Positions 15,252 to 18,104 of a stretch of 32,000 nucleotides of DNA are shown piece after piece (the stretch's first letter is position 1; each line of letters starts with the position of its first letter). Location: the NCBI GenBank assembly GCA_021498095.1, contig JAIZWK010000001.1, positions 2,160,001 through 2,192,000 on the forward strand, read 5' to 3'. Position numbers and translations under genes: made by a program. The notes beneath the pieces are model-generated. The model did not search any database, was not told the DNA's origin, and was given only the letters and a program-made list of their open reading frames with translations. This DNA comes from Candidatus Harpocratesius repetitus. Lineage in GTDB: Archaea; Asgardarchaeota; Lokiarchaeia; Sigyniarchaeales; Promethearchaeaceae.

Positions 15252-15878
15252 TTAATAAAATTTTATTGCATCTAAATATTTTACGTTGAATTTACTGTTA
15301 TGAACAAAATTTTGATTATATTTCTCAAAAATTTGTTGCATTTCATCACTTTCTTCTAATATTGTATATATTACACCTGATTTAAGAGGTCCATCACCAC
15401 CTTCTGATTGAGGTGCAATTGGCTTTCCATCTATTTGAGTAATAATAAAAAATGCATCATGATTTTTTTGCAGTAATGAAATTGGAATTTCAAAGGTTTT
15501 ATATCCATCGCTTGATTCAAATCTTAAATATTGTACGTCACTTAAATCTATTCTAAGTTTTTCAAGAATATCCCACAAAAGAACTGCAGAAATGGTGGTA
15601 ATCATGGTATTATTAACTGAATTTAAGGTAAAATATGTAATATTTTCAACTCGAGCGAATGTTCCATCCATTAATTCTGAGATTCCGATAAATCTTTCTG
15701 ATGGAATATTCCCATAAATTCTCAAACATGCAGAATCATGACATTCCCCATATTTTTGCTGAATTTCCTGATATTGCACCCAATTATAGTAAAATAGACT
15801 TCCTAAAACTAACATGAAAATAGTTCCAGCTATAATTATATTTCGAGTACGACTTTTTATGTGAAGCCTTTGATTCAT
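15252..15878 (-). CDS. N-terminally anchored protein with a molybdopterin-binding oxidoreductase (sulfite oxidase/MsrP-like) fold, lacking the catalytic Cys
   Basis: Signal-anchor helix; ISAVLLWDILE...LRFESSDGYK...TQIDGKPI...DGPLK matches the Oxidored_molyb pattern. Strong SD (AGGAGG) upstream. Confidence 0.7.
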   Translation of the reverse strand: MNQRLHIKSRTRNIIIAGTIFMLVLGSLFYYNWVQYQEIQQKYGECHDSACLRIYGNIPSERFIGISELMDGTFARVENITYFTLNSVNNTMITTISAVLLWDILEKLRIDLSDVQYLRFESSDGYKTFEIPISLLQKNHDAFFIITQIDGKPIAPQSEGGDGPLKSGVIYTILEESDEMQQIFEKYNQNFVHNSKFNVKYLDAIKFY

Positions 15879-15948
15879 TTCCTCCTTCCTCTGCTTACAT
15901 TTGATTTTGTTATATTTTTGATTGTTATTCTGATTTATATTTCTGCTC

Positions 15949-16827
15949 TTAATTTCTGAGTTGTTTTCTATTCTTTTTTTTATTAACTATTGTCACCAGC
16001 ATGATGATAAATGTAAATGAAAATATTTCTATCCATTCGCTATATCCAAGAATAGACAATTGGTTCTCTTTCTCTTTTGTATCATTTATAGATGGATTAT
16101 CATCGTTTTCAATTGTATTATTATAATTTAGATGAATTGTTGAAATTTCTATAGCAGATAGGTAATGAACATTGAAAAGTGAATTGTATACAAAATTTTC
16201 CCCAGGTTCACCAAGTTCTTTAAACATTGCAATCATTTCTGAATCATTAACGATACTTTCATATAGAACATTGGATTCTATTGGACCCTTTGGTGGAACT
16301 TCTCCATTTTCTTCAGTTGTAATTATAACAGAATGTGTATTATTTTTCATGATTCGAATCGGAAAATAATAACTTTTATATCCATCATTTCCCACAAATC
16401 GAATATATGTTGCATTTTCCTTTAAAACATCCAAATTATTAAAGATAGAATACAGAAACACACCTGAGATTTGCAGATAATTCTTAGTTCCCATTTTATT
16501 CAACCAAGTAAAATTAAGATTATTACAAGTTTCATATGTATTGTTTAATAGAGCCGTTTTGGATATATTGAATGATTCTATGACTCCATCACCGTAAAAA
16601 TGAAGAATTTGGTTATTGTAATAGTTTTCTAAATCTTCTATAGACGGATCATCAGAGTTTTTTTGATTAGATGACAAGATGAAGGAGTAATTTTGAGAAA
16701 AACTTGAATTTTCGTGAGTATTTATTTTAATACTTAAAGGAAATAAAAGAAAAATGGTTAGTTCCATAAAAATTAATATGGAAAAACCAATAATACGAAT
16801 TTTCTTAAAATCTAAATGGTTTCTCAT
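15949..16827 (-). CDS. Surface protein with molybdopterin-binding fold and Loki-CTERM-like tail
   Basis: Signal peptide; ISGVFLYSIF...IRFVGNDGYK...ENGEVPPKGP; tail SILGYSEW-TM-KKKNRK. Clear paralog of the 15252..15878 protein (NFVYNSLFNVHYLSAI vs NFVHNSKFNVKYLDAI). Confidence 0.7.
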   Translation of the reverse strand: MRNHLDFKKIRIIGFSILIFMELTIFLLFPLSIKINTHENSSFSQNYSFILSSNQKNSDDPSIEDLENYYNNQILHFYGDGVIESFNISKTALLNNTYETCNNLNFTWLNKMGTKNYLQISGVFLYSIFNNLDVLKENATYIRFVGNDGYKSYYFPIRIMKNNTHSVIITTEENGEVPPKGPIESNVLYESIVNDSEMIAMFKELGEPGENFVYNSLFNVHYLSAIEISTIHLNYNNTIENDDNPSINDTKEKENQLSILGYSEWIEIFSFTFIIMLVTIVNKKKNRKQLRN

Positions 16828-16892
16828 GTTGATTTACCTTATTTCTTATTTTTCTTAAATTTTAGGATTCTTCTTTTTTTAATTAACGATGT

Positions 16893-18104
16893 TCAAGCTA
16901 TTTTCTTTTTCTTTTTTATTTGACTAAGTACCAAAGCAATAATCCCAATGCTTATCACTCCAAGTTTATTGACTGTATATCCTGGAATACTATTATCATC
17001 CGGTAAATCTGATGGAATAATTGTAATTCTAATTTCAATTACTCCTCCAATATAATTTTTCTTGCTTGCTCCTGGAATAATTAATTGGTAGGGTCCCCGT
17101 GAAAATCCAAGATCTTTTCCATCTTTCTGAACCATCAACATTGCCTGTTTTCCTTCGTTTGAAAGTTCAACTGCAGGATCATTAATCATAGTTCCAGTAA
17201 ATCCATTCTCCATTTGCTCTTTAGTAAAAACCATATTTGCTCCATAGCCATCATAAGCGATAAAGGATATATTGTAATTTTCATTAGTTATTTGTTGCAT
17301 TAAGCTGGCAACTGTGAAGCCAGTTGAGAGCGATCTACTCCAACCATACCCTGATGCATTGTCGAAATATCCCCATGTATAACTAGTAAAATTGACTGAA
17401 TTTGTGTTATTTTGGCTGTTGAAATAACCGATTTTTGTTCCATTTACCGTGAAACTTAATGTCCAAGGATCTGTATAATCAATTGATACAATATCCCTAA
17501 CTTTTTGCTTTCCAATTAGGTTCTCTCCCCAGATATAAAAGTTTCCATAATCTGGATTGTAATCATGGAGCCATTGATTATTCCATGCAATCAGAATAAT
17601 AGTAGCGTTGTCAGTCTCAGGATATTTAGAATAATCTGAATCTGCCATTAAGAGTTGAGTTGTATTAATAACAAAACTGTATCCATCTCCCGCTTTAACT
17701 GTGAAATTAAAGATGTCGTTCCATCCAGCAATTTCAAATAAATGTAATGGATTAAAGCCAATTACTGGGTAAAAACTTCCCTCTTTTTCAATTGTATAGT
17801 TTTTCATTTGAAATGTATGATTTTCATAAGTTGTATAGTTAATAATTTGACTCAAAGTAAATAATCTGGAGTAATCTCCCTTATGGAGGGTGATATTTGC
17901 ATCTGGAATATCACCAGCTGGAAAAGTTACATTATTCCATAAATCATCGGCTACGATTGGAACGAGATTATATTTTGATGCCGATTTCATCTTCTCATTG
18001 GAGTATTGAACGTTAGATACAAATGAATTGCTCAAAATCATTAATCCAATTAAAAATCCTAATAACAGAGAATTTGTTATAAATTTTTTCTTCATTTTTA
18101 TCAA
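16893..18104 (-). CDS. Surface glycoprotein-like protein with two molybdopterin-binding-fold domains and Loki-CTERM tail
   Basis: Signal peptide; domain 1 GFNPLHLFE...VKAGDGYS...KVRDIVSI; domain 2 TGFTVASLM...FIAYDGY...KDGKDLGFSRGPYQLIIPG...IEIRI; tail SIPGY-TM-KKKKK; many N-x-S/T sequons. Confidence 0.75.
   Translation of the reverse strand: MIKMKKKFITNSLLLGFLIGLMILSNSFVSNVQYSNEKMKSASKYNLVPIVADDLWNNVTFPAGDIPDANITLHKGDYSRLFTLSQIINYTTYENHTFQMKNYTIEKEGSFYPVIGFNPLHLFEIAGWNDIFNFTVKAGDGYSFVINTTQLLMADSDYSKYPETDNATIILIAWNNQWLHDYNPDYGNFYIWGENLIGKQKVRDIVSIDYTDPWTLSFTVNGTKIGYFNSQNNTNSVNFTSYTWGYFDNASGYGWSRSLSTGFTVASLMQQITNENYNISFIAYDGYGANMVFTKEQMENGFTGTMINDPAVELSNEGKQAMLMVQKDGKDLGFSRGPYQLIIPGASKKNYIGGVIEIRITIIPSDLPDDNSIPGYTVNKLGVISIGIIALVLSQIKKKKKIA

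Follow-up and report, generated by a model that had tools for sequence, protein, structure and literature searches.

In a Lokiarchaeon, a three-gene set of surface proteins forms one operon with a YkoEDC-type ECF importer, and the four domains that these proteins carry (two in p403, one each in p292 and p208) have the SUOX molybdenum-cofactor fold without the cysteine that ligates the metal. We propose, with a probability of about 0.6, that the operon captures and imports preformed Mo/W-pterin cofactor. A cofactor fold lacking its cysteine, displayed on the surface of a cell that has an importer encoded alongside and no genes for synthesis, most likely serves to catch ready-made cofactor from outside. 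The features are listed in Table 1, in coordinates of the window, that is, the whole stretch of 32,000 nucleotides analysed here.

Table 1. Genes, domains and residues of the receptor-importer operon, in window coordinates
Feature	Position	Strand	Description or basis
p403, 403-aa surface protein	16893..18104	-	N-terminal signal/TM, two Cys-less SUOX-like domains, C-terminal Loki-CTERM-type anchor
p403 domain 1, residues 67-212	17469..17906	-	hhalign against family profile, probability 95.1, E 3e-8 (profile match as sole basis)
p403 domain 1, Cys-equivalent M100/N102	17799-17807	-	Alignment
p403 domain 2, residues 213-364	17013..17468	-	Structure search, Z 15.3 to 3hbg, Z 15.0 to PruR 7kom
p403 domain 2, Cys-equivalent N249/S251	17352-17360	-	Alignment
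p403 domain 2, Ser260	17325-17327	-	Cys at the same place in most orthologues
p292, 292 aa	15949..16827	-	N-terminal signal, one Cys-less SUOX-like domain, C-terminal TM and basic tail
p292 SUOX-like domain, about residues 70-227	16147-16620	-	31% identity to p208
p292, Cys-equivalent W108/N110	16498-16506	-	Alignment
p208, 208 aa	15252..15878	-	N-terminal signal-anchor helix and one Cys-less SUOX-like domain
p208 SUOX-like domain, residues 46-208	15255-15743	-	AF2 model, structure search
p208, Cys-equivalent T84/N86	15621-15629	-	Alignment to MsrP
ECF S component, 215 aa, distantly YkoE-like	14589..15236	-	PF09819 E 5e-4; 15 nt downstream of p208
Fused EcfA-EcfA'-EcfT, 874 aa, energising module of the importer	11902..14526	-	TIGR04521, two ABC_tran, CbiQ

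Fold of the four domains

Independent proof of the fold was needed, since matches to PF00174 were below threshold for p208 and p292 (12.1 and 11.2 bits, cut-off 24, E 0.14-0.27) and absent for p403. An AF2 model of p208 (pLDDT 97.2) matched SorA in a structure search with Z 14.9 (rmsd 2.4, 133 aligned), PruR with Z 14.6 and YedY with Z 11.6, the next unrelated chain lying at Z 5, while the model of p403 domain 2 matched chicken sulfite oxidase with Z 15.3 and PruR with Z 15.0. PruR matches to the two models (7kom, 7rkb, 7kou) span Z 14.2-15.0, and judged on these models PruR is structurally as close as the SUOX enzymes.

The other two domains join the family through their sequences. The p292 domain is 31% identical to p208, and domains 1 and 2 of p403 match the family profile with hhalign probabilities of 95.1 and 96.3; it is because each of them matches this profile that we assign the p403 domains a shared fold, the probability from their direct comparison being 0.3. 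Profiles were required throughout: BLAST found no similarity between p208 and p403, direct sequence searches of the PDB with the p208 family, the p403 family and p403 domain 2 returned nothing relevant, and SorA and PruR were reached there solely with the profile widened to 93 members. Against canonical SUOX enzymes the wider family profile gives a probability of 99.2 (E 1e-19), and 64 of the 93 relatives match PF00174 at E below 0.01; the p403 family taken by itself matches these enzymes weakly by hhalign (probability 2-14).

Absence of the metal ligand and retention of a probable pterin motif

An earlier note on this DNA had claimed that all four domains lack the Mo-ligating cysteine. The segments that it quoted lie where it placed them in every case (p208 residue 83, p292 residue 106, p403 residues 105 and 251), p403 contains no cysteine at all, as it had read, and alignment to MsrP puts none at or near the ligand position in any domain; elsewhere p292 has one (C101) and p208 two (C46 and C51, ahead of the domain). 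Cys146 of MsrP aligns with T84 of p208, and a gap-free alignment puts N86 opposite. In the AF2 model this site is the tip of a long beta-hairpin (strands 76-85 and 91-100), which is full length and whose strands align to MsrP without deletion. The absence is general in the family, none of whose 93 members has a cysteine in the five columns around the ligand position; the residue is kept in all 14 canonical Asgard SUOX proteins and in 15 of 15 canonical proteins in the family comparison.

Some other residue might in principle hold the metal, making these proteins real extracellular Mo/W oxidoreductases with an alternative ligand (the conserved Asn, Asp248 or the cysteine of p403 orthologues). 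Conserved polar residues are indeed found at the hairpin tip or close to it, the N86 column being Asn in 65 of 93 members and Asp248 of p403 domain 2 being invariant, and most p403 orthologues have a lone conserved cysteine in domain 2, two residues before the G-F motif (consensus E-C-T-G-F). However, Asn is not a known Mo ligand in the SUOX fold, and the orthologue cysteine, which by alignment presumably occupies the position of the active-site Trp204 in the sulfite oxidase structure, has been lost in the window genome, where it is Ser260, and in its closest relative. Such enzymes would moreover have to work without TatC, cofactor biosynthesis, or a dimerisation or redox-partner domain, and we consider this explanation scarcely credible.

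The motifs downstream of the ligand site, which the earlier note took to be kept, are so with one exception: D-G-Y stands in all four domains (p403 residues 140 and 285, p292 148, p208 124), and G-P in three (p403 337, p292 181, p208 163), p403 domain 1 having none. Across the family D-G-Y is well conserved (D in 89 of 93, Y/F/W in 85 of 93), as is an aromatic residue ahead of the V-K strand (Y/F in 72 of 93). The Tyr of D-G-Y aligns with the MsrP Tyr in profile alignment and, through MsrP, would be the counterpart of the Tyr on which PruR stacks its pterin. PruR, known from Agrobacterium, Vibrio and Klebsiella, is a periplasmic pterin binder with a Cys-less SUOX fold (PDB 7kou, 7kom, 7kp2, 7rkb), and the stacking Tyr belongs to an N-x-Y triad said to be common to YedY (PMC11194511). 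In the A. tumefaciens protein the pterin lies between Tyr and Trp with a hydrogen bond from Asn (N102, Y104, W160); PruR proteins have a shortened hairpin, on which Trp, as part of a conserved Pro-Trp motif, takes the place of the cysteine (PMC11194511).

Surface location and a probable non-catalytic role

N-terminal signal-anchor or signal-peptide features and C-terminal anchor features place the domains outside the cytoplasm, and the three proteins have 13, 10 and 2 N-glycosylation sequons. TatC was not found in the complete genome, so the fold cannot be exported loaded with cofactor; Tat export, prompted by a K/T-R-N-F motif at the N-termini, was ruled out on this ground. A domain search of the SUOX-like proteins found no dimerisation or redox-partner domain (heme domain). 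The missing cysteine in a family of 93, the outward topology, and the lack of TatC and of Moco synthesis all support the earlier view that these are non-catalytic binding proteins rather than oxidoreductases, and it is very unlikely that p403, p292 or p208 is a Mo enzyme. The accompanying warning about automatic annotation was apt, as UniRef names the Promethearchaeum orthologue of p208 'Oxidoreductase molybdo...'; our analysis corrects a systematic mis-annotation of these SUOX-fold proteins as oxidoreductases.

The operon and its ECF importer

The genes for p403, p292, p208, the S component and the fused EcfA-A'-T protein are separated by 65, 70, 15 and 62 nt, respectively, and the order SUOX-like, S, A-A', T is kept in 10 of 10 sister-family loci as well as in P. 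syntrophicum MK-D1 and L. ossiferum; the three receptor genes and the importer are one operon, a context that the earlier note did not bring up. The fusion protein matches TIGR04521 at 334 bits (cut-off 330) and contains two ABC_tran domains and CbiQ (E 9e-23). The S component is below threshold for PF09819 (20.7 bits against 25.2, E 5e-4), with 9 of 11 orthologues matching that family (best E 6e-9), and its profile reaches the YkoE structure 5edl only very distantly (E 0.022). As the relationship to YkoE is so distant, the cargo is unreadable from homology. Related operons carry a conserved protein of roughly 300 aa with the motif 'G-D-C-x2-Y-H', which is absent from the window; considered as a further SUOX-like domain, it was rejected (hhalign probability 31 over 30 columns only, no Pfam match).

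ECF importers classically carry vitamins. The distant YkoE likeness of the S component, together with the high rank of PruR in the structure searches with p208 (Z 14.6) and p403 domain 2 (Z 15.0), could accordingly be read as PruR-like binding and ECF import of a small non-Moco pterin or other vitamin-like heterocycle (candidates being precursors of folate or methanopterin, the queuosine base and, by analogy with YkoE, thiamine/HMP). However, the truncation of the hairpin seen in PruR is missing here, as is the Pro-Trp motif. The genomic links described below (position at the moa cluster, mutual exclusion with MoaC/MoeA/TupA, the Moco/Tuco riboswitch) are to the molybdenum or tungsten cofactor and not to folate, thiamine or queuosine genes, and next to the operon and its relatives we saw neither thiamine genes nor a TPP riboswitch. 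A small ligand of this kind is improbable in our view.

The likeness to PruR also invites a regulatory interpretation, in which the proteins would be pterin-responsive signalling receptors merely regulating the transporter or another membrane partner, as PruR itself exerts its effect through a membrane protein, whose periplasmic domain it binds (PMC11194511). This we regard as highly improbable, given that the operon contains no GGDEF/EAL or other signalling partner, that in archaea and bacteria alike the association with ECF genes is strict, and that four domains per operon, with up to five matched SUOX-like stretches in relatives' proteins of about 2500 aa, fit capture better than sensing.

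Cofactor genes in the host genome and across the order

The host genome is complete, in a single contig of 4.36 Mb, and encodes seven cofactor-dependent enzymes (six AFOR genes and one bis-MGD-type enzyme of the Molybdopterin family). MoaC, the MoaA C-domain, MoeA (MoeA_N) and MoaE were not found in it, nor were TupA, WtpA or SBP_bac_11. Its single match to MoCF_biosynth, a candidate MoaB/MogA, was ruled out as such, the protein being CinA-like.

The order as a whole leans heavily on tungstopterin AOR enzymes, AFOR genes being encoded in 120 of 121 genomes, and its lineages are split between those with tungstate uptake and cofactor synthesis and those with only the receptor-ECF operon. In a filtered search of these assemblies, many of them incomplete, which should be borne in mind wherever a gene is absent, 46 genomes had the S component without MoaC/MoeA (none with TupA/WtpA; 2-17 AFOR genes each) and 47 had MoaC/MoeA without the S component (43 with TupA/WtpA), while 12 had both and 16 neither. 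The S component and MoaC/MoeA tend strongly to exclude each other (Fisher odds ratio 11, p 3e-9, for genomes that are related and thus not independent points), and switches of state are seen within genera g1, g2, g3, g5 and g7. The 16 genomes with neither route have AFOR genes and are mostly incomplete assemblies, one being rated 100% complete. Both MK-D1 and L. ossiferum carry the operon, without MoaC and MoeA.

All three states occur at one syntenic locus: tupA-tupB-wtpC with moaC-A-D-E-moeA-moaB-moeA, the receptor-ECF operon with the moa cluster, and the operon alone. The operon sits exactly in the tupABC slot of sister genomes, and genomes that join it to the moa cluster lack TupA/WtpA. 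A strong S-component match together with MoaC and no TupA/WtpA was found in five genomes, among them the three that have the operon directly beside the moa cluster.

These arrangements speak for the main rival. If the ECF module imported tungstate or molybdate, with the domains, free of pterin, binding the oxyanion in the former oxyanion pocket, the operon would replace TupABC/WtpABC, which fits both its place in the tupA-tupB-wtpC slot beside the moa cluster of sister genomes and the genomes that have operon and moa cluster without TupA/WtpA. Against this, the 46 operon genomes without MoaC/MoeA, and the window genome without MoaA-C and MoaE as well, have kept AFOR, and in such cells imported metal could get neither insertion nor a pterin. 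The combination of operon and moa genes is moreover rare (12 genomes) and the operon on its own common (46), whereas a metal importer would predict the opposite, and the presumed pterin-stacking Tyr motif is conserved. Known ECF cargoes are vitamins or metal cations rather than oxyanions. We therefore consider metal uptake unlikely, and favour import of the finished cofactor.

Bacterial relatives

A search with the p208 profile found members of the same domain family in bacteria. Of 56 loci in Clostridia, Actinomycetota and other groups, 53 have ecfA-like genes immediately downstream of the gene for such a small Cys-less protein; ecfA, ecfA' and ecfT are all present in 47 of these, the rest being cut by contig ends. 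As in the archaea, several outward-facing SUOX-like proteins (2-4 per operon, all Cys-less) accompany an ECF module. The A, A' and T components are separate genes in bacteria and fused in archaea, and of 20 bacterial loci tested, 11 have the Moco/Tuco riboswitch RF01055 at the start of the operon, whereas the archaeal operon has no riboswitch.

We expected the bacterial carriers to lack MoaC, and this expectation failed: all five carrier genomes checked have it, in contrast to the archaeal operon, which is mostly found in genomes without biosynthesis. In bacteria, on these five genomes, the system does not replace cofactor synthesis. Salvage beside synthesis is usual for vitamins. The same observations would also suit metal uptake, as bacterial carriers combine MoaC with a riboswitch of a class that often controls molybdate/tungstate transporters (PMC2408646). 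A literature search found no paper on bacterial Moco/Tuco-riboswitch ECF operons with Cys-less SUOX-fold proteins.

A proposed salvage route

If the operon captures and imports cofactor, the anchored domains would bind preformed Tuco/Moco or metal-bound molybdopterin, which may derive from neighbouring cells or from necromass in anoxic sediment. Their hold on it would be reversible, as we propose because no cysteine ligates the metal, and they would pass it to the S component; the ECF module would then import it for loading into the aldehyde:ferredoxin oxidoreductases and the one bis-MGD-type enzyme. In this way the operon may serve for salvage, taking the place of both tungstate uptake and cofactor synthesis de novo. 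For the wider proposition, that this is the archaeal form of an undescribed Mo/W-pterin uptake system and that about four in ten sampled Lokiarchaeales, MK-D1 and L. ossiferum as the two cultured species among them, gave up tungstate uptake and synthesis and live on the cofactor of their partners, we put the chances somewhat above even.

As far as we know, prokaryotes have been assumed to make their own Mo/W cofactor, because it is labile. A full-text literature search found no described microbial Mo/W-cofactor importer, Moco ECF importer or Moco auxotrophy in Lokiarchaeia; the archaeal version of the system and its distribution across genomes are new. If the cargo is indeed the cofactor, the operon names the missing transporter, makes a concrete metabolic dependency part of the syntrophy of MK-D1 and L. 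ossiferum, which are cultured relatives of eukaryotes, and shows the SUOX fold in a new role and ECF importers in a new architecture with extracytoplasmic receptors.

Comparison with known systems

The SUOX enzymes (MsrP/YedY 1xdq, SorA 2blf, chicken sulfite oxidase 1sox; PF00174) share with these proteins the fold (Z 11.6-15.3) and the G-V-x-L, D-G-Y and G-P motifs, but the proteins described here lack the cysteine ligand, any dimerisation or heme domain and Tat export, and their host lacks cofactor synthesis. PruR is likewise a small, secreted, non-enzymatic protein with a Cys-less SUOX fold (Z 14-15, rmsd 2.2-3.0) and has a pterin-stacking Tyr motif, N-x-Y, to which D-G-Y probably corresponds. 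It differs in its Pro-Trp motif, of which there is none in our family alignment, and truncated hairpin, where p208 has Thr/Asn and a hairpin of full length. PruR is moreover soluble with a single domain and is encoded bicistronically in Proteobacteria with its partner DcpA, a diguanylate cyclase-phosphodiesterase, whereas the proteins described here are membrane-anchored, occur several to an operon and have an ECF importer as their partner, in anaerobic bacteria as well as in Asgard archaea.

Among transporters the nearest comparison is YkoEDC of Bacillus subtilis (5edl), a group I dedicated ECF importer of thiamine/HMP. Both systems encode a duplicated ATPase, a T component and an S component in one dedicated operon, and the S component described here is probably of the PF09819 type, as YkoE is. 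Here, however, A, A' and T are fused in one protein, the similarity of the S components is very distant, and the genomic context points to the Mo/W cofactor rather than to thiamine. Classical ECF importers are not known to have extracytoplasmic receptor proteins, which are present in this operon.

Non-catalytic handling of Moco has precedents in eukaryotes. The MCP of Chlamydomonas is a Moco carrier or binding protein with a fold unrelated to SUOX, and C. elegans takes up Moco from E. coli in its diet, no transporter having been identified there. What they have in common with the system proposed here is that preformed Moco is bound, protected and passed on without catalysis, and that an organism lives on cofactor of foreign origin; they differ in being eukaryotic and intracellular or intestinal.

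The SUOX-like/ECF operon

The genes for the surface proteins p403, p292 and p208 are the first of five on the minus strand, ending with the 874-aa fusion, which are separated by gaps of 65, 70, 15 and 62 nt. The fusion matches TIGR04521 at 334 bits and CbiQ at E 9e-23. The 215-aa S component matches PF09819 at E 5e-4, a match that 9 of 11 orthologues share (best 6e-9); the S-component profile finds 5edl in the PDB at E 0.022. The window's source is a Lokiarchaeon. The nearest relative of p403 belongs to Candidatus Harpocratesius sp. (90% identity), with other orthologues in Promethearchaeum syntrophicum and Lokiarchaeum ossiferum.

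In most related operons the two-domain SUOX-like gene is separated from the one-domain gene by that of a conserved ~300-aa surface protein (table, among others). It begins with a signal peptide, ends in a C-terminal anchor and contains the motifs G-D-C-x2-Y-H, L-D-G-x3-E-x-F-W, C-W-N-I-N and D-H-A-I-S-W-T-Y; it has no Pfam match and is not SUOX-like. The window operon lacks this protein and has p292 in its place. The divergent HdrD/GlpC-like gene beside the operon encodes two ferredoxin-type clusters; its product matches the CCG domain only weakly (Pfam E 0.017), and this neighbourhood is not kept in relatives.

Features of the window and of related loci (L handles)
Feature	Position	Strand	Remarks
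p403 gene	16893-18104	minus	two SUOX-like domains
p403 Ser260	17325-17327	minus	E-C-T-G-F position
p292 gene	15949-16827	minus	one SUOX-like domain
p208 gene	15252-15878	minus	one SUOX-like domain
p208 C46-C51	15728-15745	minus	C-x4-C
215-aa membrane protein gene	14589-15236	minus	ECF S component, distantly YkoE-like
874-aa protein gene	11902-14526	minus	two ECF-type ABC ATPases and EcfT/CbiQ domain, fused
HdrD/GlpC-like protein gene	18472-19671	plus	divergent from operon
~300-aa surface protein	L013:10245-11156		
~300-aa surface protein	L016:9019-9891		
~300-aa surface protein	L030:10926-11834		P. syntrophicum
~300-aa surface protein	L031:12052-13074		L. ossiferum
TrmO/TsaA-like tRNA methyltransferase gene	L025:7114-7590		between ecfT and moaC
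Moco/Tuco riboswitch	L089:11335-11439		Oscillospiraceae

Four SUOX-fold domains without the molybdenum-ligating cysteine

Pfam profile PF00174 did not match p403, its scores for p208 and p292 fell far short of the threshold, and family profiles run directly against the PDB gave no match. A p208-family profile search returned 130 relatives among 1.8 billion representatives, and PF00174 was found at E < 0.01 in 64 of 93 p208-profile relatives (best 1e-18). The joint profile of these relatives matched SorA (7e-7) and PruR (9.5e-6) in the PDB, and E. coli MsrP together with 14 canonical Asgard SUOX proteins with an hhalign probability of 99.2 (E 1e-19). The AlphaFold model of p208 (pLDDT 97.2) matches SorA with Z 14.9 (rmsd 2.4 over 133 residues), PruR with 14.6 and YedY with 11.6, the next unrelated chain reaching only Z 5, and p292 is 31% identical to p208. 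In the p403 model (pLDDT 76) domain 2 matches chicken sulfite oxidase (Z 15.3) and PruR (Z 15.0 at rmsd 2.2), and against the family profile p403 domains 1 and 2 score probabilities of 95.1 and 96.3. The molybdopterin fold that the earlier note had assigned to four domains is thus borne out by profiles and models, p403 domain 1 being a SUOX fold as judged by profile alone. Nine proteins of 1500–2800 aa (P0117, P0129, P0130, P0136, P0140, P0143, P0149, P0159 and P0169 among the p208-profile relatives) carry 2–5 Cys-less SUOX-like matches each, which suggests giant multi-receptor surface proteins of other organisms.

The same note held that these domains lack the Mo-ligating cysteine, and its four quoted segments and its finding of no Cys in p403 were accurate. 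C101 is the sole Cys of p292, and p208 contains C46 and C51. Its statement that the DGY and GP motifs are kept was correct except for p403 domain 1, where GP is absent. By equivalences precise to about two positions, Cys146, which ligates Mo in MsrP (precursor numbering), pairs with p208 T84 (N86 if aligned gap-free), p292 W108/N110, p403 domain 1 M100/N102 and p403 domain 2 N249/S251. Under both alignments the p208 residue lies where strands 76-85 and 91-100 of the long hairpin meet, at the tip that carries the Cys in SUOX enzymes (PMC11194511). Within five columns around this site Cys occurs in none of 93 family members, the N86 column being Asn in 65, whereas the ligand is present in all 14 canonical Asgard SUOX proteins.

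Most p403 orthologues (alignment A2) have a lone Cys two residues ahead of the domain 2 G-F motif (E-C-T-G-F), which is Ser in p403 (Ser260) as in its Harpocratesius relative of 90% identity; in another relative the Cys is displaced by two residues. This position, which by our alignment and the sulfite oxidase structure would be that of pocket residue Trp204, may touch the ligand, though it is not conserved. The C-x4-C of p208 lies just ahead of the domain's first strand, is almost invariant in close orthologues and is missing from the wider family; the pair may form a disulfide or bind a metal.

An N-terminal signal or signal-anchor is present in p403, p292 and p208, a C-terminal anchor in p403 and p292, and the three proteins contain 13, 10 and 2 N-glycosylation sequons. 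A search of the window's genome (a single contig of 4,361,485 bases) found no TatC, so that a cofactor-loaded fold would not be exportable, and no MoaC, MoaA C-domain, MoeA_N or MoaE. These signals and absences support the view, put forward in the earlier note, that the domains are non-catalytic binders rather than oxidoreductases, and true catalysis, as in the enzymes sharing their fold, is less likely. The sole MoCF_biosynth match in this genome is CinA-like.

Distribution in the order and in bacteria

The window's genome encodes six AFOR (tungstopterin aldehyde:ferredoxin oxidoreductase) genes and one Molybdopterin-family enzyme, and none of the known Mo/W oxyanion binders TupA, WtpA and SBP_bac_11. 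AFOR genes occur in 120 of 121 genomes of the order, in 2–17 copies each. Combined searches for the S component, MoaC, MoeA_N and TupA/WtpA divide these genomes into 46 with the importer and no biosynthesis marker (none with TupA/WtpA), 47 with biosynthesis and no importer (43 with TupA/WtpA), 12 with both (six with TupA/WtpA) and 16 with neither (none with TupA/WtpA; mostly incomplete assemblies), absences being taken from a filtered genome search with good controls on assemblies that are partly incomplete. The opposition of importer and biosynthesis gives a Fisher odds ratio of 11 (p 3e-9), related genomes not being independent, and importer-only and biosynthesis-only states are both found inside five genera (g1, g2, g3, g5 and g7). 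The two cultured Lokiarchaeia, P. syntrophicum MK-D1 and L. ossiferum (genomes G161 and G166), both have the importer and lack MoaC and MoeA. Canonical Cys-bearing SUOX enzymes are found in several importer-only genomes too. The 16 genomes with neither system carry AFOR genes; G141 is rated 100% complete and one contig of G077 ends in a partial SUOX-like gene, and either assembly gaps or a third route may account for this state.

In a sister family a single syntenic locus with common flanking genes exists in three states: tupA-tupB-wtpC and then moaC-moaA-moaD-moaE-moeA-moaB-moeA; the SUOX-like/ECF operon in front of that moa cluster; and the operon without the cluster. One genome with operon and moa cluster (L025) has a TrmO/TsaA-like gene inserted between them.

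The p208 profile also matches small anchored proteins of Clostridia, Actinomycetota, Coriobacteriia and Halanaerobiales. ecfA-like genes lie directly 3' of the SUOX-like gene in 53 of 56 bacterial loci fetched, with ecfA, ecfA' and ecfT complete in 47 and the others ending at contig edges, and the operons encode a putative 5-TM S component and 2–4 SUOX-like proteins. Of 20 loci tested, 11 have the Moco/Tuco riboswitch RF01055 at the head of the operon and in its orientation (40–74 bits; gathering score 36), and MoaC is present in all five carrier genomes checked. In L089 the riboswitch instead follows the ECF genes and presumably controls the next genes. In the bacterial one-domain proteins of alignment A5 the last strand contains a conserved Cys (S-Q-R-W-C-K), which is Asn in two of the nine and is not at the Mo-ligand position.

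Cargo of the importer

Four independent lines, namely the fold, adjacency to the moa cluster, a distribution complementary to both biosynthesis and tungstate uptake, and riboswitch control in bacteria, tie the system to the Mo/W cofactor, and the SUOX-like domains would be the receptors of an ECF importer that serves its supply. The main candidates for the cargo are the cofactor in its preformed metal-pterin state and the oxyanion of the metal. We favour the cofactor as candidate ligand (probability about 0.6), because among importer-bearing genomes the importer-only state is by far the commonest and retains many AFOR genes; the putative pterin-stacking Tyr motif and full-length cleft hairpin, both retained, were also counted in its favour. 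Import of the oxyanion would fit two observations: the operon takes exactly the position of tupABC, and a few genomes have operon and moa cluster but no TupA/WtpA. However, importer-only genomes can neither make the pterin nor insert the metal and would have no use for a metal importer, which makes this alternative unlikely. A small pterin or other vitamin is also a less likely cargo, and pure signalling a less likely role of the domains. Salvage alongside synthesis is normal for vitamins, and the presence of both importer and MoaC in bacteria is compatible with cofactor uptake.

Comparison with known systems

Literature searches found no described receptor-plus-ECF system of this kind, and the MK-D1 study names B12, biotin, lipoate and TPP as exchanged cofactors without molybdopterin among them (PMC7015854). 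For non-catalytic binding by this fold the published precedent is PruR, a Cys-less SUOX-fold pterin binder of the periplasm (PMC11194511). In contrast to PruR, p403, p292 and p208 lack the Pro-Trp motif and have a hairpin equal in length to that of MsrP; they have membrane anchors, with several domains per operon, and their partner is an ECF importer, whereas that of PruR is DcpA.
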